A stretch of 64,000 nucleotides of DNA from Styela clava (Eukaryota), in contig NC_135255.1 of NCBI RefSeq assembly GCF_964204865.1, positions 15,066,001 to 15,130,000 of the forward strand, in the 5' to 3' direction. How positions within the stretch are numbered: position 1 is the stretch's first letter; the number at the start of each line of letters is the position of its first letter. The translations under genes were made by a program, and so were the position numbers. Positions 9,801-63,900 of the stretch are shown piece by piece. The notes beneath the pieces are model-generated. The model made no database searches, was not told where the DNA came from, and was given only the letters and a program-made list of their open reading frames with translations.

Positions 9801-12800
9801 CCAGTCGTGTTTTTTTGTTTTCAGACATTAGAAAGCTGCAGTAATCGCAACCTGTTGTGATTTCGAAACAAAAAAGAAATGTTTTTATAATTTAGAATTT
9901 AATCACTGGATATACCATCACACAATACTGTGTTCTAACGGTGGGTGAAGACTGTTAGTCTATAAAAAGTGCTACCACTAGCACTTGAAGTCATGCTACG
10001 AATAACCTATTTTCACCTCTAATTTTTCTTCAAGGTCATGTAATAATTGTCCTCCTTCACTTGCTGTTGTGATAGTGGTTGCACTCTTCCCATTCATTTT
10101 GGCGCGAGATAAATATTCAACTCTTCTGGTCAAATCGTGACTGTTACTGAAATTAAAAAAGTAACAACCAAAATTAGCGATTATGGACTCATCCTAAATA
10201 CGGGGGAACAGGTGCTCGGCGGTGTGGTGCATTGTGCCAAGCGTTAGGAATATGCTTCCCCCTCTAATTACCCTGTGTGGGTTCGCCGGTTCATATCCAA
10301 TGCGGGGATAGTAATGTGCGAGAGGATTGCTGGACTCCTTGCCGTCGTAACATGGTTCAGGTAACCGCAGGTTGGTTGTGGCTTCTTCCACCATCAAGTC
10401 CATGCTTCCGTAAACAAATAACTGGCTAACTAACCCCTTACCCGACATAAACTGGTAACTGCACGAGAGGCCATGGTTCGCCATATGATTAAGCAATCTT
10501 CCCTTTTCTGGGTAAATATGTAAATCCTATCCTAATATTGAAACAGTATATCATCACACACTAATACATTCAAATACTCAGCCATTCAATCACATAACCT
10601 GCATATCAGGATTAGCTTAACATACCCAGATTTATCTGCAAGTTTCATCAAAATTTTTGCTGCTGCAGCATGATCACCAGATCTTTCATAATATTTCCAC
10701 AAGATGTCACAATAGAAAGGATCATCTGGGTGATTTGATGTTACTCTCTTCAAATATTGTTCAAGGTAGGGAGATGATATCTGAGTAAAAAATAGATTAC
10801 TTCAGTCTCTTTCCATGCGATTTCAATTTGCTGGATTGTGTCAGTATGTTTATATTCCCATATTTTTTTTAGTCTATCGGGCTATTTCAGATTCTAGTAC
10901 TAGCCTAGCAAAGTGGCCGCTTTGGGACTGATAAAATCAATTCCGAAACTTGTCTTTATTGGTGACAACAAATTTTATTCCCCTCTGAACAGTGTTTATC
11001 ATAGCATTTGAAAACTCTGCTTTCATTGTTTGCATTGTCATTTACATTTTTGAGTCCATCCTACGTCATACAGGTTTGATTGTTTTCTACAGCCTTTCAC
11101 ATTTCTTATCTGTATAGTACAGCTTGTAGCATCAAGATCAAGCATTTTCCCAAAAGTAAAGTTTCATAAAATACAAGTCATTTGAAATCAAAGTCTGACA
11201 AAACTCAAAATTTTGAATCTCTAGGATGAGTATATTTTGATCAAAAAAACTTTAAAATTCACTTTTATTAGAAAAAACAACAAACTCCAACTAAATTCCA
11301 ACTTAAAAAAAAACTCACTCTTAGTAGCCTATCGGCGAGGCTTTTTCTCAACATCCAATCATATATTGTTACATGAAGCAATTCATCTTCCGATCTCATA
11401 ATGAGATGCATACAACTCTCAGCCTATAAAAGATAAGCTGTTGTAATTCAGGTAAACAAGTAGGCACTCATACCAGCCAGCTTTTGCAAATAATATTTGG
11501 AATGGAAAATCATGTGACATATACAAGAAATGGCCCAAACTGAATAATGTACTATGGATTACTCGATATATTCAAAATTGGGTCATGTTCAATAAAGGGT
11601 ACTCCCGAAGTATGCGAACCAAGATGGCAGACACTGGAACGTAGTATTGTACAAGGTTAGGGTTAGGCCATAATTTTACTCCAATTTTCTTTATTTTAGT
11701 TCTATTACGAGTTCGGGGACTAGCCAAGTGACTCCCGTAGTATTTGTACCTGAAATTATGGCCTAACCCTAACCTGGTACACATACTATGTTCCGGTGCA
11801 CGCCATTTTGGTTTCACATACTAGTACCCAATAAAGAACACATAGTCAATGTGTATTTATTGGAATTGTTTAAGATTTGTTATCAGCACGACATACATAT
11901 CGTTGTGCTTCCTCTGCTTGCAAATTCTGAGTGCTTTTTGTAACTCCTTGCTTGTTGGGGGCTGGAGGGCCTAGTTGTACAGGAACACTTGGTGCCTGTG
12001 GTTGACTCTCACTCGCCAACATTAAATCATCCATCATGTCTGTGATAACTTTGTAGCATTCAGCTCTGAAACAAATAAGATGCAATAAATTATAAACACG
12101 GTCAAAAAAATTGACCCGAGAAACCATTTAAAAAATGACTCCAGTTGACAAAATTGTGATTCAAACTTCAGCTTCTAGCTCTGCGAAAACGACAATTCAA
12201 TACCAAAAAATTTGGTGTATGCAGTTAATTGTCTGTTGAAAATTCTTAGTCAACTTATACTTTCAAGTTTATGCCTAAAATATTGACTTTCGTTCCATCA
12301 ACATCAAAATGAAATTCAGGCTTCATAGAATTAAATTTTTTGACAGCATGAGTTGTGGAATACGACTCACACTTCAAATCCAATAAAAACAATGACCACA
12401 TTCTCCATAGCCCTGCTTACAAACATTAGTTTAATAAACAGGTCCGGCCTGCAGATGCCATCCAACTACAAATGTTAGAATTCGCAGATCTCAATGATAT
12501 TTATAGTTTTATTTTGATTGGCAGATTCAAATCCAATTCTGATGAAACAATTCATTAGGTGAAATGGTATTGTGCCCCCCTCCAACTGCTCTGTGTCCCC
12601 CGGTTGGGAACCTTTGCTATATAAAATTAAAGATCCTTTCTATTTCCTACCTTGCCTCATAAGCAATTCTTCCTTCTACATTTTCCTCAGGTTCGGCACA
12701 AGATTTATAGAAATGGAGAGCAAGGTTTCTTTCGTCTCTTTTCATAGCAGCAGTTGCACATAATTCAACAACACCAGTGTAAAAACCAACTAAACGATAA

Positions 12801-25362: not shown

Positions 25363-25863
25363 TTAATCCATAACTTCGCTCCGCAAACGACAAACTGCAT
25401 AGTAGATAAGGACAGCTACGAAGATACCAACAACTTCAGATGTCAACCACAAATCTCTTGTGTTTCCAGGGTGATTGAATTCAATATCAAATAGCGACGA
25501 AAGACCAGAAGTATCTTCTTCATTTCTCATTGCTTTTCTGAGAACATTCATTCCATCATCATCAAAGAGACGTAATTTGTAGGTTCCACTTGCAGCATTA
25601 CTAGATTCTGTAACCCAACTTAGCTGATAAATATTCTGTTCTGGGGATTTGGTAACAGGATATATTTTTCCACCAACTTCTGCAAACAGTGGAAATCCTT
25701 GAGCTCCACTGCTACATTGTAACTTGAATTTCACAATGAAGGCAGTGTCATCTGACAGGCGCCTTTCAGTTGTTGTATAAGTTTCCTCTGTTACTGTATG
25801 CCTCCCACAGATGTTACCCTGCACGAGCGCTACGCATGCAATGATCAAAACGAAAATCTTCAT
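25363..25863 (-). CDS. SSR4: Translocon-associated protein subunit delta (TRAP-delta), intronless CDS
   Basis: 166 aa with signal peptide MKIFVLIIACVALVQG and a conserved Cys pair. Motifs TYTT..LSDDTAFIVKFKLQC, LFAEVGGKIYPV, YQLSW, SGTYKLRLFDDDG and LRKAMRNEED, plus a C-terminal TM (WLTSEVVGIFVAVLIYYAV), match the TRAP-delta family. Confidence 0.93.
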   Translation of the reverse strand: MKIFVLIIACVALVQGNICGRHTVTEETYTTTERRLSDDTAFIVKFKLQCSSGAQGFPLFAEVGGKIYPVTKSPEQNIYQLSWVTESSNAASGTYKLRLFDDDGMNVLRKAMRNEEDTSGLSSLFDIEFNHPGNTRDLWLTSEVVGIFVAVLIYYAVCRLRSEVMD

Positions 25864-25940
25864 CTTGTCTTTTAGTTTATTTATAATGGTGAAAAACTTT
25901 AAAACTAGGATTCAATATTCTAGTACCAAAAAACAATAAT

Positions 25941-45535: not shown

Positions 45536-45731
45536 GGTTCCATTACATTTGAATCCACGTGCATTTGAACCCACGACAGTTGCACCTATGGAAATTTTGA
45601 ATTTTACGAATATTTGAACCCATACTATCCCTAACCCATGGATTTTAGCACCCTCATATAGATTGAACCCGCGGATATACGGGTGCAAATGTATGGGTTC
45701 AAATGTACGTGGTTTCAAATGTACGGTAACC
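45536..45731. mobile_element. MULE-type MITE
   Basis: Long imperfect TIRs built from ACATTTGAACCCACGT units. Perfect 9-bp TSD GTTATCCTA at 45527-35 and 45732-40. Confidence 0.85.
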
Positions 45732-46149: not shown

Positions 46150-47301
46150 TCATTTATCAGATTCACCTATCGGTTGCGACATTGCATTATTGCTGTCATC
46201 AGAAGTTGTTACCGACCTTTTTTTTATTCTTGTAATCATCCTTTTGAACGGAATTTTAAAAATTTCCCCGGTGTTTTGGAATGTTGCGATTATGCAAAAA
46301 ACGTTAATCATTAGGCTAATATCATACAATGTAGTGGGAAGAATTCGTGGTATGAAAATATTCTCTCCAGGAATGACGGAAACTATCGCCATAGTGCAAA
46401 TATCTGAGAGAACAGTTATAGCACAGCATATCATAGATCTGTGTATAGTTCTTAGCACAGTGTTAGTGTTTTTCCTACCTAATATAACTTGAAAACAAGT
46501 CAAAATGGAGTTTTTCAGTCTCTTATCAAGCCTTGTAGCTGTATTTGAGTCTTTGCTTCCTGAATTACATATATTTTTATGTCTACGGGTTGTCGAGTCA
46601 TTGAGCATCAATGGATAAATAAATAGGCCCAGGAGGGTCAACTGAGCTACAATCAGAAGACCTCCGAGAAAATAGGATCCCGTGTTTCCAAAGAAATTTT
46701 CAATGTCTGTGAAATTTGCTTCCGAGTTGATGACACATCCGTAAGGCAACGAGGTATACGAGTACGGTATCGTGTACACACAACTAATTCCGATGCACAT
46801 CGGTGTGAATAAAATCATTGCAATCCATCCAATAGGCGACACAAATTTTCCAGCCATTTCGTTCACACTTGGTTGGCTATATATAATCTTTTGGCGCAGC
46901 CATAAGAAGAAATATACTGCGTAAATAGACACCGAAAATGCCCCGTTTGTTATGTCGAAAATGAGCTCACATGTCTCCAAACCTCCTGGAATTATTGGAA
47001 GATTCATCAGTATTGCATTGGCTATCAGTCTTGGAAGAAGCAATACAACTGCTAATATGCACGTTGTATATATGACACCGCGGTTCAGGTTGGATGCTCC
47101 TGGTTTCTGCTTCCATTTTTGTTTCTTTACCCCGTAAATCACTAGACAAGCAAATATATAAATAGTCCCTGTTATGAGGAATGCGTTTAACACTTTGCAA
47201 CCCGTCAGTATTGAAAAGGGTATTTTGAAATCTGTTGAAGAATTGTTGGCTGCTTCTGTAGTTTGATAAGTTTTCATGGTGACATTAAAATCCATGAGCA
47301 T
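46150..47301 (-). CDS. Orphan 7TM GPCR-like receptor, paralog 1 (intronless)
   Basis: Seven hydrophobic segments, N-terminal N-glycosylation sequons, TM3-start Cys (TCE) and ECL2 Cys (PYGC), FLWLRQ at the DRY position, LGLFIYP in TM5 and YDISLMIN in TM7. The likely ATG is 47301, downstream of an acceptor TTTTCAG at ~47351; the track ORF starts earlier at a non-ATG codon. Confidence 0.85.
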   Translation of the reverse strand: MLMDFNVTMKTYQTTEAANNSSTDFKIPFSILTGCKVLNAFLITGTIYIFACLVIYGVKKQKWKQKPGASNLNRGVIYTTCILAVVLLLPRLIANAILMNLPIIPGGLETCELIFDITNGAFSVSIYAVYFFLWLRQKIIYSQPSVNEMAGKFVSPIGWIAMILFTPMCIGISCVYTIPYSYTSLPYGCVINSEANFTDIENFFGNTGSYFLGGLLIVAQLTLLGLFIYPLMLNDSTTRRHKNICNSGSKDSNTATRLDKRLKNSILTCFQVILGRKNTNTVLRTIHRSMICCAITVLSDICTMAIVSVIPGENIFIPRILPTTLYDISLMINVFCIIATFQNTGEIFKIPFKRMITRIKKRSVTTSDDSNNAMSQPIGESDK

Positions 47302-47622
47302 CTTACAAATGCCACCTTGTTTGTGGCTCTTTTGTGTCACTAAACTGTCACTGAAAATATTAAAAAATATATACAATTGAGAATGAAAAAATACAATTTT
47401 GGTTACGTATAACATGGTTATTGTAATTGCATTATAACGATGATGCAAATATAGATAACGTTCAAATAATGCTAAGATTTCAAATTATCTTTCGAGCTGT
47501 AATCTTATAGTATCTCGCGATCCGGATTAGTAGGCGTCATTTTTTTGGACTCGCTATTTTTCAGTCGACACCGAGCTCTTTGAAAGATAACACTGAAACT
47601 ATGCATATATAGTCTTGGTATA

Positions 47623-48735
47623 TCATAGAATTGTTGTCTCTGAGATTTGAGGTTCCTGCATTCTTTCTATATTTTGAGCACAACCTGAGAACAGTGTTTT
47701 TAAAATTCCTCTGGTATTTTGAAATGTTGCCACAATACAGAACACGTTTATCATTATACTAATATCATAAAGGGTAGTCGGCAACACTCGTGGAATGTCA
47801 AGATTTTCCTCTGGGATACTTAATACAATTGCCATCGTGAAAATATCGGATGAAATTGTAATAGAGCAGCACACCATAGATCGATGTATAGTTCGTGACA
47901 CTATATTTGCATCGGGTTCGCCCTTTATCATTCGCCAAATTGCGGAAAAGAGGCGTTTTATTTTGTAAAATTTGATTCCGGTTTCTGATGGATCGTTCCC
48001 TCGTGATATATTATTGTTTTCGTGGACTGCAGAATTGCTGAGCGCCAACGGATAAATGAACAAGCCCAATAGTATCAGTTGTGCCAATATTTGGAGTCCT
48101 ACCATTAAATATGGACCGGATCCTTTGAAAAAATATTCCAAATCTGTCAGGTTGGCACGTAAATTGATGACACAACCGTAAGGGAGTGATTCAAATGATG
48201 TAGGGAGAGTAAACATAACAGTTAGTCCAAGGCTCATGATGATCAGAAGAGACATTGCAAACCACCCAAGAGGATTGGCGTATTTTCCTGTCATTTGTCG
48301 TACCGTCGGCTGTGCATAAATAAGTAGTTGTCGAAACCATAAAAAAGAATAGATCGCAAATGCTGCTAAGGTGTATGCACCGTTAGTGATGTCAAATACC
48401 ACTTCGCACATTTGTAAACCTCCAGGTATGAGCGAAATGTTTATAAGCACGGCGTCTGCTACAAGTCTGGGAAGAAATAGAATAACAGCTACAATGCATG
48501 CGGTGTAAATGACTCCACCATTTACGTTGGATATCCCTGTTGATTTCTTCCATCTATGATTTTTTATACCATATATTATCAAGCTGATTATAATGTACAT
48601 AGTGCACGCCAAAAGTACAGCATTAACCACTCGACAGATAGTCTTAATGTGAAAGACTGATTTCGGATTGTATTCCCGGAGAGCCGGTATTGTGAAATAT
48701 GCCACTGTCGAGTTGTCGCTAGTTAGCTTCATCAT
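47623..48735 (-). CDS. Orphan 7TM GPCR-like receptor, paralog 2 (intronless)
   Basis: 370 aa with the same motifs: LPRL, MCE, FLWFRQ, PYGC, LGLFIYP, RTIHRSM and YDISIMINVFC. Confidence 0.88.
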   Translation of the reverse strand: MMKLTSDNSTVAYFTIPALREYNPKSVFHIKTICRVVNAVLLACTMYIIISLIIYGIKNHRWKKSTGISNVNGGVIYTACIVAVILFLPRLVADAVLINISLIPGGLQMCEVVFDITNGAYTLAAFAIYSFLWFRQLLIYAQPTVRQMTGKYANPLGWFAMSLLIIMSLGLTVMFTLPTSFESLPYGCVINLRANLTDLEYFFKGSGPYLMVGLQILAQLILLGLFIYPLALSNSAVHENNNISRGNDPSETGIKFYKIKRLFSAIWRMIKGEPDANIVSRTIHRSMVCCSITISSDIFTMAIVLSIPEENLDIPRVLPTTLYDISIMINVFCIVATFQNTRGILKTLFSGCAQNIERMQEPQISETTIL

Positions 48736-49707
48736 GTATCAGTTTTAACCATCAATATGAAGAACAGCTCTTATTATTTTAATTTTAACTAAGTAGTAAA
48801 ACAATGATTGGCATTTATCACTCTCAAAAGCATCAGCAACTTAGGTAAAATAATACGATACAGCATGCTATTGGATAGCAGATGATTTAAAATAATGAAA
48901 TAAATAGTAAAATTTTGCACACACGACTGTTCGGTATGTCAAAAACACGATAACAAAGTACAAAATAAATAACTGATAGAAACAAATGATATAAGTTGTC
49001 GTCAAGATTATGCCTCTAGTTCATTTCAATACTACTAAGCATAAAAGCACCCACGTGATATATACAGATTGTTGGCATTTTGGAACAGTGGCTAACGATC
49101 TCAGTGCATTCAAAATGCAATATTTCACGTTTATATAAGTCCATGAGACAATTTTCTGAATCCGATAATAATTTCCTAAATGATTTATTGAGATTATTTC
49201 GAGATATATATAATCAGCCCAATTTTCAATAATGAGCGGATCTGCGTTTAAACTTGTTTGATTTCAGCAATTGACGAAATGAAATTATGTGCGATTATCG
49301 TTAAAATACTAAGGATTGCTCAAATCGTTCCAAATGGGCTAGTTCAATCGATGCGAAATACTTAAAGAAATCTCTATCAATTTTCCTGGTTTGCTAGGAT
49401 ATGAATCACATCACCAACTGTTTTTTAAATGAAATAATTTGGTTACTCTCATAGATAAGAGTAGATAATAAACTCGACTGCAGTTACGAATTACAATCAA
49501 ACCAAATCCGCGACACGCAAGCTTGAGAAATTGAAACGATACGCACAATTATCTGTTTTTTTTTTAATTTTAAGAATCTAAAAGTATGAATAAATCTTGA
49601 ATAAATGAGTAATGAAACTTCGACAACACAGTCCTTCCTATCGTCAATTCTGGCAATGAATCAGTAGTCAATTTTATGTGCCCATTCGCAAAAAACATCA
49701 GACTTTG

Positions 49708-50814
49708 TCAAAAAGCGGTGATCTCTGGACTCTGAGTTTCTGGAGTTCGTATATTTATGATACGTCCCGCAAACAGCGGTTTCAAAATGTTTTTGGTTTT
49801 TTGGAAGGTTGCGACAATACAGAAAACGTTGATCATCAAACTAATGTCATATAAAGTCGTTGGTAACACGCGTGGAATATCCATGTTTTTGTCTGGAATA
49901 CTTGATACCATTGCCATTGTGAAAATATCCGATATTATTGCTATAGCGCAGCATACCATTGATCGATGTATAGTCCGTAACACTGTATTTGCACTTCGGT
50001 CACATTTCATCCCCCGCCATATTGCAGAGAAGAAGTGTTTTATCTTATGAAAGTTGTTTGATATTCCGGGTTCTATATTACCATCCGATAACTTTATATC
50101 CTGGCGAATTACAGAATTACTAAGTACCATCGGATAAATGAATAAGCCCAAGAGTATCAATTGTGCTGAAACTGAAAGTCCCACCATCATAAATACACCA
50201 TAACTTACAAAAAACTTTTCAAAGTATGTCGAATCGGAACGTGGGTTTATAATACAACCGTATGGAAGCGATGTAAATGTCGAGGGTAGGATCATCATTA
50301 CGGATAGTCCTAGACTTAAAACGATGAGTACCGCCATAATACACCATCCAATAGGATTAACGTATTTTCCTGTTAACTGTCGTACTCTTGGATGAGCATA
50401 AATGAGTAGTTGCCGTAGCCACAAAAAGAAATAAATAGCATATATTGATAAGGTATATGTACCGCTATTAACGTCAAACACCGTTTCGCACATTTGCAAA
50501 CCTCCTGGGATATGCAGAAGATTGATAAGCACCCCGTCCACCACAAGCCGCGGAAGAAACAAGATGACTGATATCAAACACGTGGTGTAAATGACTCTCC
50601 CATTCATGTTGGATGTCCCAGATACTTTCTGCCACTTCCGATTCTTTATCCCATATGTGATCAAGCTAATGATTACATAAATGGTGCACGTTAATAGTAT
50701 AATGTTGACCACCTGGCACGTAGTTTTTATTGAAAATGCAAGGTTCGGATTATATCTCAATGCAGAACTGGTTGAAGGATAGATCAGGGTTGAATTGGTG
50801 ATATTTAATTCCAT
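49708..50814 (-). CDS. Orphan 7TM GPCR-like receptor, paralog 3 (intronless)
   Basis: 368 aa from the ATG at 50814 and closest to paralog 2. Motifs LPRL, MCE, FLWLRQ, PYGC, LGLFIYP and YDISLMINVFC. Confidence 0.88.
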   Translation of the reverse strand: MELNITNSTLIYPSTSSALRYNPNLAFSIKTTCQVVNIILLTCTIYVIISLITYGIKNRKWQKVSGTSNMNGRVIYTTCLISVILFLPRLVVDGVLINLLHIPGGLQMCETVFDVNSGTYTLSIYAIYFFLWLRQLLIYAHPRVRQLTGKYVNPIGWCIMAVLIVLSLGLSVMMILPSTFTSLPYGCIINPRSDSTYFEKFFVSYGVFMMVGLSVSAQLILLGLFIYPMVLSNSVIRQDIKLSDGNIEPGISNNFHKIKHFFSAIWRGMKCDRSANTVLRTIHRSMVCCAIAIISDIFTMAMVSSIPDKNMDIPRVLPTTLYDISLMINVFCIVATFQKTKNILKPLFAGRIINIRTPETQSPEITAF

Positions 50815-51079
50815 CAAATCACAGTAAAACCGTCAATGTGAAGAACCTACGATAATAACACAACTATATATATATACGAACTGGCAATCTTCCACGACTT
50901 AAGAGTTCTGAAAGGAAACACAAACAACGAGAGTTATATTATGTACAAAATGCAAATACGTAAACAAAGGTACAATTTCAGAAATGAATACATTCAAACG
51001 TTATGATAAAAGTCACATCAAAAACACAGAGAACGGATTTTCATATATATTTGTTTAATGATAAACATATATAGCCTTA

Positions 51080-51282
51080 GGTGACCGTACATTTGAACCC
51101 ACGTACATTTGAACCCATGTGTATATCCACGGGTTCAATCTATATGCGGGTGCTAAAACCCATGGGTTAGGGTTAGTATGGGTTTAACTATCCGTGAAAC
51201 AAAAAAAATTCCATCGGTGCAATACCATACAGGTGCAATTGTCATGGGTTCAAATGTACGTGGGTTCAAATGTAATGGAACC
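51080..51282. mobile_element. MULE-type MITE, same family as 45536-45731 in opposite orientation
   Basis: Ends GGTGACCGTACATTTGAACCC / GGGTTCAAATGTAATGGAACC. Perfect 9-bp TSD ATAGCCTTA at 51071-79 and 51283-91. Confidence 0.87.
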
Positions 51283-53810
51283 ATAGCCTTAAGCACGTCA
51301 GAGGTCGCTCGCAACTCATTTTCATCATTATTGCTTTCACATTTAGTTGAGTACCAAGAACCTTGATTTTTGAAGAAATATGTATAATAATGTTTTTGTG
51401 TTGAAGTCGGATCTTCACACAATCTCTTCAAATTTAAGATTACTTTACCCTTCTATCACGCCGATCCCGTTTTTATCATTCTGGCGTATAAAAGAGCAAA
51501 AAGGACGTTTATAATCAGAGTTGCGAATAGGCTTAGCGTAGACCTTAGCGCAAATCCATATTTTTTAAACTCAAGTCTGGGCGCAACACCAGCTTGACGA
51601 ACAAGTTTAGTCAATGTGGCGAATAACAAAAAATGATCAATGATTAAATATGCTTATAAAATGATGAGCTGTGCCATAGTTTCTGGTGACGGGGCTTTTG
51701 TGAATTTTCCCGGAATTGAAACTCCGAGCTATTTTAATAATGATCCCGAGAATAGGTTTACGAAAAGTTTGAAAATCGAATATATACATTTGATAGTCTT
51801 GTATCATAACTCTTACATAAAATTATTATGAATTGTCTTAACCCCTCAGAATAAATGTATCTTTTCTCCCCACAACCCAATCTTTCAAACGTCGAATTTT
51901 CCAAATGCGAATGAATTCCCTGATACAGCGAGTGGTTCCCAAACTTTTAGGTAAAATTTGCACAACCGTGGGAATCCGAGAAAACTTTGGGTAAACTGTA
52001 TTGTTATCTTCCCAGCAGCTGTGCAGTTTTACTAAAATTTTCTTCTATGTGGATATATTATTAAGTGTCTCCTCAAAAGATAGATTGGGTACCGTTTTAA
52101 CTACACCCGGGCAGCTAGAAGCATTTACTACAAAAATTTAAAAAAATTGTATTTTAGTGCAGAAGGCGCGTAAGAATATGTTGATTGAGACATATTTTAT
52201 ATCAAAACTTCTTTAGTTTCCGTTCCTTATTTTCGCTATAGGCATCCTTGGTAATACCTTTTCTAGGCATCCCTGTTATATTTGGTAAATGTGTGGCTTG
52301 AACAGGTTCAAATAAATCAAAATCAGTTTTTACAGTCAATCCGAGGACAACATCAAAGATGCTAATTAATAGAAATAATGCAATAAGTCAATTATTGATT
52401 TTCATCGACGAATAGTATATTAATATACTAGAAATATCACTGAAATTTGGAATCTTTACTGTCAACGATGTTCAGATTTTGATTAGATTTCGAATCAAGA
52501 TTGACCGCTTGTGTCCTAAGATAGAAAAATAATTAAAGCCAGCTCACGTGTTAATAGTTCATATTAGAGCAACATATTCATGATTTTCCTACGTAAAGTG
52601 TAATTCAATGTGTCAAAAATGACCTCTTATCAAAATATATACAGGAATTATTTCTTGAATAACAAACTATTATTTAACAAAATTATCAATTTTCCTAGTA
52701 TCGCGTTCGAGTGGATTCATAAACCTACGACAGTGTTTTCGATGTTGAGTAATTTAGTATTCTTACTAGCCTAATAGTTTTCATGAATATCGTGATTACT
52801 AGAGATTTTATGACTTTGAATTCATTGTCTATATCCCACGTTTCCTAGCTAGAAATCTTCCTTAATATTACAACCTTCAAATTACTATAAGTATAAATAT
52901 AGCCTTGACAAGCGACTAAATTAATGACGCGATATGCGTATATCGCTTCTTCCGGTTAGCTATTGTGGCTGATATATATATATAGGCTATATATACCTGC
53001 CGTTGTGTACATTGATAAGAACAATGATGGTGCAAAACACATATTTAAACTGTCAGGGCTTCTGTACTGTTAAAAGCAAGTGATCCATCGTTGTTGTATA
53101 ACCGTACTAATAAGCGCCGGAATACCGGAAACTGATTCCCAATTCTGATGCGATTTTTCAGTATGAACTCTATGTAAGATCTTTGACAAGACTTTTGTTT
53201 ATCGAAATATTTATAGTATGAATACTTGCTCCAAAAAACATTCACACGTAAAATAAAGCATAATCCAAACCATTTTTTGATTTAACTTATCTCAATTGCA
53301 CGACTAAATGTATATTATTTATCGAATTGTCTTCACAGGATCAATTAACAGTGCCCTGTCTCATTTATTGTTCAAAATGTTAATCATCGCTGGAATTAAT
53401 GCGAATTTATTTAGAACCAAAATAACTGCTTCGGTTGTGTTTGGTCATTTTACCCAGCAGTTCAATAGTAGATTTTTGTTGAACACGAACTGAAGTTTTA
53501 AAGCAGACACTGTCCGTTTTTCTTGCCAACTGTTCAAAATTTCGGCGGATGTTACATCGTTTCATGCCATCAATTTCACAAATTTTCTTCACCAATATGT
53601 CATAAATCCATAAATTGTACTACACTTTTTGCAGACTGGAAGTGGCTATGGTTTGTTGCATTGTACTGCAAACAAATCGTCCGATTCGTCCGCTTTTTCC
53701 AAGAAGGTGTCAATAAAAATAAAATAACCTTTCAGAACGACGTGTACGAATACTCTCACATGTAATTACACGTTATTTTCAATCATAGGTTCAATTCTTT
53801 CCGTGTTACG

Positions 53811-54971
53811 TCATAATTTACATTCATTTAAAGTAATAGTGGACACACAAATTGCGTCATTGCTTGTACTTGCAATTTCAGAAGTTTTCTTTGGTTTGGT
53901 TGAATATCCCGTGCTAGAGGCCTCTGCGCAACTCATGCAGACCACAGTTAGGATTTGAACATTGTTTCCAAATGTGGTAAGAAGACATAGTAAGTTCACC
54001 AACGTACTAATGTCATATATGGTATTTGCAATCACCCGAGGAAGATCGAGAGGAACTCGTGTAACAATACCCATGGCTGCAAGATCCGAGATCACAACTA
54101 CTGCGCAACCTATCATGGATCGGTGTATTGTTCTTGCAACCGGACTCGCCCCTGGATTACCCACTATTGTCAGCCATAGAGTCCTTATGAATGAAGACAC
54201 TCTACTCTTCATCCCGGTGAATCCCTCAGTTTGTAGTTTCGTCTTCTTGTCTGAGTTTATTCTTTGTGACATGTTGTCCTTCATCTCCCGGTTGCTTAGT
54301 ATCATTGGATAGACAAACAAACCGAGCAATATTGTTTGAATTACCACTAATGCTCCTGCCAGGACGTACTGACCAACACCTTCGATGAATTCCTCGTAGT
54401 CATCCCGTTCTGACAAAGGTGTTAAACTGCAGCCATATGGCGTTGCAGAAAACTGATCTGGTATTGTATATATGCAACTCAGGCCGGGGGATAATACGGA
54501 AAAGACGACAAGTGCAAACCAAGTGAAAGGTTTCACACATTTCGCAGCTAATGGACGAACAGATGGATGTGCGTAAATTATTTTTTGACGAAGCCAAAGA
54601 AAAAAATAGGTCATGTATGTCGAAACAGAGTACGCTCCGTTAGTCAGGTCTGATACCATCTCACAATATTGCAATCCATTCTCAAACTTTGTAAGATTGA
54701 AAAGTATACAATCTCCAATAAGTCTCGGCAATGAAAAAATCACAGCCACAACGCACATTGCGTATATGATTCCGCAATTCATGCTCGATGCTCCTGACGT
54801 CTTTTTCCACTTGTGCTTTTTCGTTCCATATATCAGCATGCACAGTAGTAACCATATTGTACAAAGCAGTAGGATTCCATTTATTACTTGGAATGCTATC
54901 ATAATCGACAAAGTGTTTGTCCTCACGTTTGTGGTAGTAGTAGTTGTATAATTCGTGATATTCAAGACCAT
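53811..54971 (-). CDS. Orphan 7TM GPCR-like receptor, paralog 4 (most divergent, intronless)
   Basis: ATG at 54971 (MVLNITNYTTTTTT). Motifs LPRL, YCE, FLWLRQ, PYGC, LGLFVYP, RTIHRSM and YDISTLVN. Confidence 0.87.
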   Translation of the reverse strand: MVLNITNYTTTTTTNVRTNTLSIMIAFQVINGILLLCTIWLLLCMLIYGTKKHKWKKTSGASSMNCGIIYAMCVVAVIFSLPRLIGDCILFNLTKFENGLQYCEMVSDLTNGAYSVSTYMTYFFLWLRQKIIYAHPSVRPLAAKCVKPFTWFALVVFSVLSPGLSCIYTIPDQFSATPYGCSLTPLSERDDYEEFIEGVGQYVLAGALVVIQTILLGLFVYPMILSNREMKDNMSQRINSDKKTKLQTEGFTGMKSRVSSFIRTLWLTIVGNPGASPVARTIHRSMIGCAVVVISDLAAMGIVTRVPLDLPRVIANTIYDISTLVNLLCLLTTFGNNVQILTVVCMSCAEASSTGYSTKPKKTSEIASTSNDAICVSTITLNECKL

Positions 54972-60931: not shown

Positions 60932-63900
60932 CTAGATTCGAAGTACTGTTTCCCCGCCTTCGCCTACAGGTGTGAATGCCGAAGACGTGGAAAATTTTTC
61001 TGGTGTTGGATATGTCGGCGATCTATCGGAATGAACGGCAACGTCAGCACTTCCACCACATCCACTGTCTGTATCATCGTCATCAGAATGATTATGTTCC
61101 AAGTTTTGAGATGCGTTTGTTCTCGAAACGTTTAGAGCTAAAGATAGTTCGTCGCGAAATCGTACGGTCTGATTCGTGTCCCTTTTTTGTTGTCTTGACG
61201 GAATTGTAGATGTGTTTGATCTCATAGAGCTTTTTCTATCCTTAGTAAACCTTTCATTTGTAGCTGAGGGCGACGACATTTTGCATGTTTCATTTTCCCC
61301 TGTGCCAGTTAAATTTGATGAATTATGCTGAGATCCGGTTTCGTCAATTACACCAAGCGCATTTGATCGCGATTCCGGAAGTGGAAGATCGAGCCCGAAA
61401 GTATTGATGGTCCCGTCGTCATTTACGATGCTTGTCCTCTGCTGTAAAGAAAAAGAAAAATTTATGTTAAATTTTGTAGTAAGACAAAACGCACTGGTAC
61501 ACGCACCAGTACTAATTTCTGGTAGGGTTCAAAATCAATTTACTCAGTTTGTGGATGTTATATATTATTGTGAATATTATATAAGGCCCCATTTGATTAA
61601 TTGATCCGTTTAAAAGTCCATTTCGTATATTTCGACGCCGGATAATTTATTTTGTTTGTGAATATAAGGCCCTATTTAATTAATTGCTTCGTTTGAAAGT
61701 ACATTTCGTATTTCTTGACGTCGGTTGTTAACATGTTGAAAATTTCGAATTAAACACTATGCTTAACGTATCGCTCATAGTATGAGGAATTATGTAGAAT
61801 CCATTCCTAACCAGGAATATTCTGGTCTTCATGAAAACTCACCTCGTATTTATGCAAAATCACGAAAACGGTTTGTTAACCCTTTTTAAGCCTCAAGCCC
61901 TGCCCATTTTATGGGTATATTTGAAACTTATTTTTTTATGTCAACCATTAATCCCTAAAGCTTTATTCATGGGTTTTTAAAAGCGTCTGCTAGAGTTCTA
62001 TTCAGCAATATATCTTTAAAACACACCCCTCGAAAAAAATTTTTGCAAAAAAATTTCAAAAATTTCTAAAAAAAAAATTGGACTTTGAGATATTCTGTGT
62101 ACAGTAGAGGGTTAATAATTAATTCCTAATTAATTAATTTTTTCTTCAACGTTTTCGTCAAGTTTTTCCTAACATAACAATACCAAAACGACTATTATAG
62201 CATGAATGGTTATCACTCTGAAATTCACAATTGTATTTACAGTATTGTCAAGTTCAAGGTCAAATTACCGATACTGATGACGTCACAGCTCTTATTATTA
62301 CTGCACAGACCACCCCCAATGCAAAAAAATTAAATTTTTTCGACGGAAATGCGTGTAGAACGGCGTAACCAATCTCATACGCGCATTTACGCGTTAAAAT
62401 TACCATTAATTTTACGTTTTTTTTACATACAAAAAATCTCCATACCTCTGCCAACTATGGAGCATTCGAAATCATATTTATCAAAACAACACAGCGCCAG
62501 GGATGGTCAGGGATAGTTAGTATGACTGAAAATACATGCTAAAACAATAATAAGTCGTTATAAAGGAGTATTTCCTGTCTGAAGGGAGTCACATTTTTCA
62601 GACGTCTGACAGGTGATTTTGAAATCCAGGATATTTATACGATTCGCACTTTGCGTCACGGCTGGAAGGTTTTATCGCTTCTCTCATATCAGGGCATTAC
62701 GTTGATAAACAGCTAAGAGCGATATTGACTCTATAAGTACATAAATTTTAGAATTTATCAAAAAGTACACCCATATGGGCGTTCCGGCTGTAGAAGGGGT
62801 TTGTTAATATTACTGACATAATTGTATTGTATTAAGACCTACCTTGGGAATGTTAGTTGCATTGCTCATGTTGTCCAAACTTCTGACATACAATCCACTG
62901 TTGCTTGAAGTCGAAGAACTTTGAGAATTTCTGGTGCCACCATATGCAGAATGATCCCTGTCCACGTCTACGGCGTATTCTTCTATAGGATTATCTGACA
63001 TGGACATCAAAGATGTTGTATATCCACAGGGATCTGATGGCCTCGACACGACGTTATAAAGGCAAGTTTCGGCTGAATTGACATTGTATATGGATTGGTT
63101 TTGCAGAATAGGTTTGGAATTTACGAATGATGTTCTACATTCCGGAATGGCGCTGCAACAATCTTCGCAGTAAGGATCAAAACTATATCGCGACGAATCG
63201 AGAGTACGGTATTGTCGTAAGCTGCTTCGGTATCCCAAACCTGTATAAAGAAGTTGTGTGTTAATACGAAATAGTCACGCAACGTCATGATAAAAAGTGG
63301 TAATATAGTAAATGTTACCTTGTGTGTTTTTTGCGACGTTAGTTCCAGAGTACGACAGGGAGCTTAGTGCATCACAACTGTTGCCTCCACTCGGCCTTTT
63401 TGAGTAACTATGTCCTTCGTAAAGTGGTAAAACTGGAGGAAGTGGAAGATCCAGAGATTTGTCGAATGACTTTCTGCGGTTGTTTGTGAGGCATTCATCG
63501 CTAGGCAAAACATCTCTTCGAAAGCGAGGCTGCGTGAAATTACGAGGCATATGCGGCTCCTCTGTGATGGGCCTCTGCATTCGAGCACTTTGACTCGTAA
63601 ATCCGAAGCGAGATAGTGACGCTTGTGATGTCACAGCATTAACGTCGTCTTTGAACGTGGGAAACGAGAATTTCGAGGCATGGCCATATCTGGAATCTGT
63701 TGAAAAAAGAAAATAAGTGAATATGTCCCTTGAACAACAAATTTTAAATTCATCCATTGCCATTAGACCTTACCTGGCTGGTCAATAGAACTCTGACTGT
63801 CACACCTTGATACCGAGCAATCTAAGTAGCACGGCTGTCTGGCTTCCCTTGAATCAGAAGAGATTATTTTTGTCGCGGGGTCTTCACTGTCAAATTGATA

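Follow-up and report, generated by a model that had tools for sequence, protein, structure and literature searches.

Which kind of receptor is encoded by four tandem genes on contig NC_135255.1 of the tunicate Styela clava, and to which family do they belong? The window, i.e. the whole stretch of DNA that was analysed (64,000 nucleotides (nt), positions 15,066,001 to 15,130,000 of the forward strand), carries on its minus strand the genes listed below (genes 1-4, in window positions), which encode orphan receptors with seven transmembrane helices (7TM; individual helices TM1 to TM7). The original prediction, made from the sequence alone, had taken them for a lineage-specific family of chemosensory or immune receptors with an unusual activation mechanism. 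Judged by shared sequence motifs, the cluster consists of new members of the tunicate-specific 7TM family of Ciona robusta KH.C3.516 (Cirobu.g00005701); it is ordinary for this family, which has already been described and proposed as tunicate chemoreceptors. Sequence features and structural models make it highly probable that genes 1-4 encode G-protein-coupled receptors (GPCRs), and by analogy we lean towards receptors for outside chemical cues.

46150..47301, minus strand: gene 1, 7TM orphan receptor, probably 383 amino acids (aa) from M39
46150..47415, minus strand: open frame of gene 1 extended to the upstream ATG at 47415, 421 aa
47345..47395, minus strand: T-rich tract ending in TTTCAG, candidate splice or trans-splice acceptor 5' of gene 1, proposed from sequence and family-wide enrichment
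47623..48735, minus strand: gene 2, 7TM orphan receptor, 370 aa
49708..50814, minus strand: gene 3, 7TM orphan receptor, 368 aa, modelled with AlphaFold2 (predicted local distance difference test (pLDDT) 85.8)
53811..54971, minus strand: gene 4, 7TM orphan receptor, 386 aa, the first of the four to branch off

The KH.C3.516 family was proposed as chemoreceptors by Johnson, Razy-Krajka and Stolfi in 2020, who described its tandem arrangement, an expression of KH.C3.516 specific to the axial columnar cells of the papillae and an enrichment of its green fluorescent protein fusion at the exposed tips of these cells; no matches outside tunicates are reported in the sections of that paper considered here (PMC7397655). 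We compared the Ciona sequences of its supplement with the S. clava family by eye and by short motif. W-x-R-Q is present in 11 of the 12 supplement sequences and W-x-R in all 12 (PMC7397655), and in KH.C3.516 the motif reads W-V-R-Q, lies 25 residues from the TM3 Cys and is accompanied by the GC, Q-x5-L-x3-P, T-D and S-F motifs. A 9-residue motif of KH.L25.4 recurs in the Clavelina protein P0090 (profile E 8.6e-57) and in the S. clava locus L030, both of which score against our family profile. Among the sequences compared, no Ciona orthologue of genes 1-4 was identified. The loci L030 and L042 (G000:C9:14.21-14.22 Mb) represent a subfamily with a very long intracellular loop 3 (ICL3), kept in Styela, Clavelina (P0090) and Ciona (the KH.L25.4 motif), and this subfamily is a candidate for an older, conserved function. 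In the literature searched, no mention of other gene IDs of the family was found, and KH.C3.516 itself is named in three records, two of which are versions of one paper; the available portion of one article names KH.C3.516 once, as a marker (PMC10962819), and a review, in the passages seen, cites the chemoreceptor proposal and calls the function not established (PMC7776563).

The family is expanded and probably lineage-restricted, as had been predicted, and the names of its members point to a tunicate origin, but it is not a local feature of the cluster. A single protein query returned 109 matches in the S. clava genome, and among the 102 long open reading frames (ORFs) cut from the matched loci, 101 match the family profile and one is a transposase. 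Four queries pooled gave at least 209 distinct family loci on 15 contigs (104 of 109, 82 of 131, 14 of 116 and 9 of 102 query rows, with repeats removed by eye and four split pairs merged), a lower bound for which the profile check covers the loci of the first query and not the 105 added by the other queries. An open frame of at least 290 aa is present at 181 of the 209 loci, 124 lie within 30 kb of another, and one array, at G000:C16:3018676-3097928, holds 22 short members (~300-311 aa) on both strands, with several broken copies. A profile search returned 1141 clusters at 50% identity (E <=0.001). Relatives with a name are labelled 'uncharacterized' protein and come from Styela clava, Ciona intestinalis and Clavelina lepadiformis; every named match is a tunicate (names exist for 2 of the 20 clusters looked up, and the best 150 of the 1141 matches were listed), and the top clusters in Atlas are mostly Chordata. 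The family is likely restricted to tunicates. Homolog searches based on words had little sensitivity (3 and 10 matches).

Genes 1-4 are four intact paralogs, each a stop-free minus-strand ORF, and no further paralog fragments were found within the window. Pairwise identities (genes 2 and 3, 61%; genes 1 and 2, 50%; genes 1 and 3, 45%; gene 4 against the others, 40-41%) agree with a tree of 231 sequences, from which those below 290 aa and external proteins more than 95% identical to ORFs of the S. clava genome were omitted, in that genes 2 and 3 are most alike and gene 4 is most distant. In this tree genes 1-4 form one clade (support 0.998) with the order ((g3,g2),g1),g4, in support of the stepwise local duplication suggested earlier, and the clade is nested in a 14-member branch of S. 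clava's own genes (support 0.79). Synonymous sites are saturated in all pairs except genes 2 and 3, for which the nonsynonymous divergence (dN) is 0.26 and the synonymous divergence (dS) 1.39 (dN/dS ~0.19), which indicates old copies that evolve under purifying selection. Contigs of four runs that we guess to be RNA (three studies; the runs are without tissue label or DNA-run control) extend over a large part of gene 4, to which all four runs contribute, and over the sequence 3' of it; of genes 1-3 they cover short pieces only, which would be compatible with low expression. The small pieces over genes 1-3, and the broken copies elsewhere (28 of the 209 loci have frames below 290 aa), would fit a cluster of decaying duplication debris without present function; we consider this very improbable, because all four reading frames have stayed open although synonymous divergence is saturated, the dN/dS of genes 2 and 3 is low and 8 of the 12 listed variants in the coding sequence of gene 4 are synonymous (11 further rows lie outside this list). 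Judged from the sequences, the idea of debris is thus largely refuted.

The description of these genes as intronless holds for the coding sequence, which is a single exon, but it is safe for this part only, because acceptor-like sites are enriched upstream of the ORFs of the family: a T-rich stretch ending in AG within 150 nt upstream was found for 34 of 100 family ORFs vs 7-11 in four control windows of 96-101. The TTTCAG tract of gene 1 is located ~50 nt upstream of M39 and ~270 nt past the stop of gene 2; since the database protein P0006 also begins at M39 (47301), gene 1 probably starts there. Among the listed rows of the contigs from the four presumed RNA runs, none has a joint or a loose end at this tract, a part that they do not cover. 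No AATAAA or ATTAAA occurs in the 400 nt following gene 2, and genes 2 and 1, with ~270 nt from stop to acceptor, might be entertained as a putative operon. The N-terminus of each of the four proteins has an N-glycosylation sequon, so the N-termini are predicted to be glycosylated, as stated before.

Are the encoded proteins GPCRs, and of which class? The AlphaFold2 models of gene 3 and of a short member (L085, pLDDT 90.4) both display seven helices, a hairpin in extracellular loop 2 (ECL2) and a short helix 8, and in Foldseek the top-50 rows are all GPCRs for both models, with TM-scores of only ~0.3-0.57; the structure-prediction check thus returned a seven-helix fold of GPCR type. VIA-align matched gene 3 to Ste2 (Z 16.9, root-mean-square deviation (rmsd) 7.8, 259 aligned), TAS2R14 (Z 16.5, rmsd 3.8, 264 aligned), TMEM87A (Z 16.4, rmsd 4.5, 261 aligned), NPY4R (Z 16.0, rmsd 4.4, 264 aligned) and GPR156 (Z 15.9, rmsd 4.3, 232 aligned), and L085 to microbial rhodopsins (Z 16.4, rmsd 3.3, 205 aligned) and P2Y1R (Z 15.7, rmsd 4.8, 264 aligned); in this comparison, made without a class A control model, ties at Z 15-17 span classes A, C, D and T, TMEM87 and microbial rhodopsins. 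As modelled, the fold is of GPCR type without class preference. In Pfam, none of genes 1-4 matched 7tm_1 (0 of 4 at E <=1); for 84 members searched at E <=0.1, 7tm_1 is absent from the 25 of 36 families shown (best E shown 0.001), and no GPCR family passes, the best being a single 7tm_2 match (E 0.019). Sequence searches of the PDB with two profiles returned no GPCR at E <=10. Leads from Atlas to fungal DUF7703, Dicty_CAR and THH1/TOM1 clusters (scores 0.82-0.85; Atlas feature scores below 0.9 count as leads only) were rejected, as Pfam did not confirm them.

The Pfam and PDB results, together with the tied VIA-align scores of TMEM87A, Ste2, TAS2R14 and microbial rhodopsins, might suggest that the family does not couple to G proteins at all and comprises 7TM trafficking chaperones, channels or other effectors, like TMEM87/GOST or proteins with the microbial rhodopsin fold. 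We regard this as quite unlikely, since the Cys pair of TM3 and ECL2, the Arg 25 residues after the TM3 Cys, a Pro in intracellular loop 2, helix 8 and a long, variable ICL3 next to a conserved cytoplasmic face are hallmarks of GPCRs, the top rows of Foldseek are all GPCRs and an expansion to ~200 copies is unlike housekeeping 7TM proteins.

If genes 1-4 are taken as GPCRs, their residue register can be compared with that of class A, to which the original prediction had likened them. The motifs it quoted are all present in all four paralogs; the TM1 Asn, the TM6 SD and the TM7 YD are invariant in the four but not family-wide (231 sequences, gene 3 numbering: N37 42%; S295 45% and D296 84%; Y 57% and D323 61%). 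Conservation at other positions is W132 99%, R134 94%, Q135 95%, Y139 92% and D114 62% in the TM3 region, R/K89 84% in TM2, Q218 88% and P228 86%, R/K284 93% in TM6, N329 76% in TM7 and F337 90%. The ICL3 is long and variable, as described: the span from P228 to R284, which holds it, measures 56-62 aa in genes 1-4 and ranges from 16 to 202 aa across the 226 of 231 family sequences in which it could be measured.

The placement of W-L-R-Q at the DRY position is borne out by two approaches that agree, the spacing from the TM3 Cys and a weak hhalign register, which aligns the two Cys and places LRQ on DRW (probability 13.5%, TM2-TM4 only). Because the Arg of W-L-R-Q lies 25 residues after this Cys in 229 of the 235 motif-bearing proteins (of 262), the DRY arginine appears to be kept in it; the same C-to-R spacing is also seen in S. 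clava's own class A genes. In class A this arginine is important for contact with the G protein; the D/E and the Y of DRY are absent from the family motif. At +11 from the TM7 Asn an aromatic residue is found in 70% of the family, not in genes 1-4, and in class A the Asn of NPxxY has a helix-8 Phe at the matching spacing; the TM7 Asn is probably the N of NPxxY (N7.49). This match would place the TM7 YD near 7.42-7.43, facing the pocket and 1.5 turns upstream of the Asn, so that YDISxxxN would not, as had been claimed, stand in place of NPxxY. The TM1 Asn, which in the model falls within the outer half of helix 23-57, ~20 residues from the inner end of this helix, and is conserved at 42%, is unlikely to be N1.50. 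Counterparts of the class A C3.25 and of the ECL2 Cys are present in 99% (C109) and 100% (C187) of the 231 sequences. The other reference positions of class A (N1.50, D2.50, P5.50, CWxP and NPxxY) have no counterpart in the family, with the TM7 Asn (76%) as the sole plausible remnant; the class A N, D, S and P columns are seen in an alignment of S. clava's own class A genes. A class-A-like architecture thus finds little support, since the fold is equally near to other 7TM classes and no GPCR family of Pfam passes; in addition, the TM1 Asn is out of register and the Y-P of TM5 departs from the class A pattern, P...Y.

What might these receptors detect? According to the accessible parts of two sources, orthologues of the vertebrate odorant and vomeronasal receptors (OR, V1R, V2R) are missing in tunicates (PMC7776563) and no homologues of chemosensory GPCRs were found among 169 Ciona GPCRs (PMC2396169). 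The chemosensory half of the original prediction stands as the leading hypothesis, already in print (PMC7397655), and its immune half becomes part of a rival reading, by which the genes would encode GPCRs that respond, in hemocytes, gut or neurons, to internal or immune signals such as peptides, lipids or microbial products. Johnson et al. also consider a neurotransmitter as the ligand (PMC7397655), a further single-cell cluster, identified here by number (cluster 3, 37% vs 1.4%), has KH.L141.50 as a marker, one subfamily persists across Styela, Ciona and Clavelina, and the best Foldseek rows are mostly peptide receptors. These rows, however, have near-equal ranks (E 1e-4 to 5e-3) and give no pointer to a ligand, the ~180 intact copies, most of them divergent, together with recent arrays and with broken copies, suggest many varied ligands, and the sole localised member, KH.C3.516, is found at an environment-exposed tip. 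We therefore think an internal ligand rather unlikely and prefer, with modest confidence, receptors for outside chemical cues.

Several observations weigh against this preference. Three ascidian orders share at least one conserved subfamily, which would also fit an endogenous ligand; VIA-align rates non-GPCRs (TMEM87A, microbial rhodopsins) as high as GPCRs, and the link to class A is weak by both the hhalign probability (13.5%) and the Foldseek TM-scores (~0.3-0.57). In favour of the preference, six of the seven helices have a lower entropy in their inner half than in their outer half, with TM2 equal (inner vs outer: TM3 1.94 vs 3.0; TM5 2.01 vs 3.32), but GPCR families in general share such a pattern, computed here for this family alone. 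The one member with known expression is a distant one from Ciona, expressed in cells that its authors call contractile, and this expression is not transferable to genes 1-4, because these belong to a different branch, rich in S. clava's own genes. No ligand, coupling or knockout data for the family were found in the literature, mostly open-access.

If the proteins are chemoreceptors, a ligand would bind in the variable outer half of the helix bundle, which differs between paralogs, and the conserved inner half would relay the change through Y-x3-W-x-R-Q-x3-Y (TM3), Q-x5-L-x2-Y-P (TM5), R (TM6) and N...F (TM7), with the kept equivalent of R3.50 engaging the tail of G-alpha. The conserved Cys of TM3 and ECL2 would likely form a disulfide, and the TM2 Arg/Lys may build, with the Asp residues of TM3, TM6 and TM7, a buried polar network replacing the D2.50, CWxP and NPxxY switches of class A. 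A salt bridge of the TM2 Arg/Lys (84%) with Asp residues is at least as likely as the cation binding suggested earlier. The proposal of an unusual activation mechanism is weakened by the key arginine, which appears to be kept in the DRY register, and by the TM7 Asn, probably the N of NPxxY. That the family is both the smell and taste repertoire of tunicates and a GPCR class of its own, signalling via the kept TM3 arginine and a new Arg/Asp switch network, is a tentative idea, which we hold with some doubt. By analogy with work on the Ciona papilla, signalling downstream might proceed via Gq and phospholipase C or via Gi; Ciona metamorphosis needs Gq, Gs and a divergent Gi, and the sections available leave the upstream GPCRs unresolved (PMC12176390). 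In this context, six single-ORF G-alpha-like genes were observed (L121-L126; G000 C9, C17 and C1, with tandem pairs on C9 and C17), two of which look Gi-like with an unusual C-terminus; three of the other four were translated and are strongly divergent. These genes, possibly the divergent G-alpha genes that PMC12176390 describes, are candidates for partners of the receptor family of genes 1-4.

The KH.C3.516 family has been the standing candidate for the chemical-sensing receptors of tunicates since 2020, and the cluster adds four members to it. Our analysis contributes a figure for the size of the repertoire (181 or more long open frames, compared with 204 GPCRs catalogued in S. clava by domain matches; PMC9138782), a residue register and a fold without class preference; the portions of the original description considered here contain no repertoire count, motif register or fold (PMC7397655). 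These three contributions give definite targets to expression studies and to deorphanisation, which bear on larval settlement and biofouling. A 2026 study of taurine chemotaxis, in the part available, leaves the receptor open (PMC12922724). Should the family prove to be both the smell and taste repertoire of tunicates and a separate GPCR class, a single genome would hold ~180 or more intact genes of it, almost as many as all catalogued Styela GPCRs; they would be invisible to Pfam and their fold as distant from class A as it is from TMEM87 or microbial rhodopsins, and vertebrates would have a sister group that built a receptor family of olfactory scale independently.

Outside the receptor genes, the window contains one further listed feature:

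51073..51289, no strand assigned: repeat resembling a miniature inverted-repeat transposable element (MITE), located between genes 3 and 4, inverted ends of 47 nt

A second MITE-like copy is located at 45536-45731 (two copies of ~200 bp in total, inverted ends 38-47 nt), and both are very deep in the contigs from the four presumed RNA runs. Pieces of a pogo/Tigger-like DDE transposase occur at 10218-10376 and 2689-2748, and a 351-aa ORF of this type (L033:3982-5034) lies beside a truncated gene of the receptor family. The window also carries a single-ORF TRAP-delta (SSR4) gene at 25363-25911 (Pfam E 3.9e-51) and, on the minus strand, three open frames (60932-61528, 62810-63274 and 63275-63769; 154-198 aa) that match no Pfam family.

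Among known systems, genes 1-4 share with the KH.C3.516 family W-x-R-Q at C+25, the GC, Q-x5-L-x3-P, S/T-D and S-F motifs and the tandem arrangement, but they have a longer ICL3 (56-62 aa span), a D at C+5 and the TM7 YD, which KH.C3.516 lacks. With class A (7tm_1) the family has in common the seven helices, the TM3-ECL2 Cys pair, an Arg at the 3.50 spacing and a probable N7.49 with a helix-8 aromatic at +11; it differs in having no 7tm_1 match, no D2.50, no D/E3.49, no CWxP and no Pro or Tyr of NPxxY, a TM1 Asn out of register and TM-scores of ~0.5. TMEM87A (GOST), Ste2 and microbial rhodopsins are tied as fold matches, and fungal DUF7703 and other fungal 7TM clusters gave weak Atlas scores (0.84-0.85), but the family has neither a GOLD domain nor the retinal Lys, and identities are 6-10%. 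Vertebrate odorant, V1R and TAS2R receptors and the serpentine chemoreceptors of nematodes resemble the family in their single-exon coding sequences, tandem arrays with broken copies, large repertoires and a variable outer face. No sequence relationship of the family to these chemoreceptors was detected, and although TAS2R14 is among the tied fold matches, what the family shares with them is a likeness of organisation rather than demonstrated homology.

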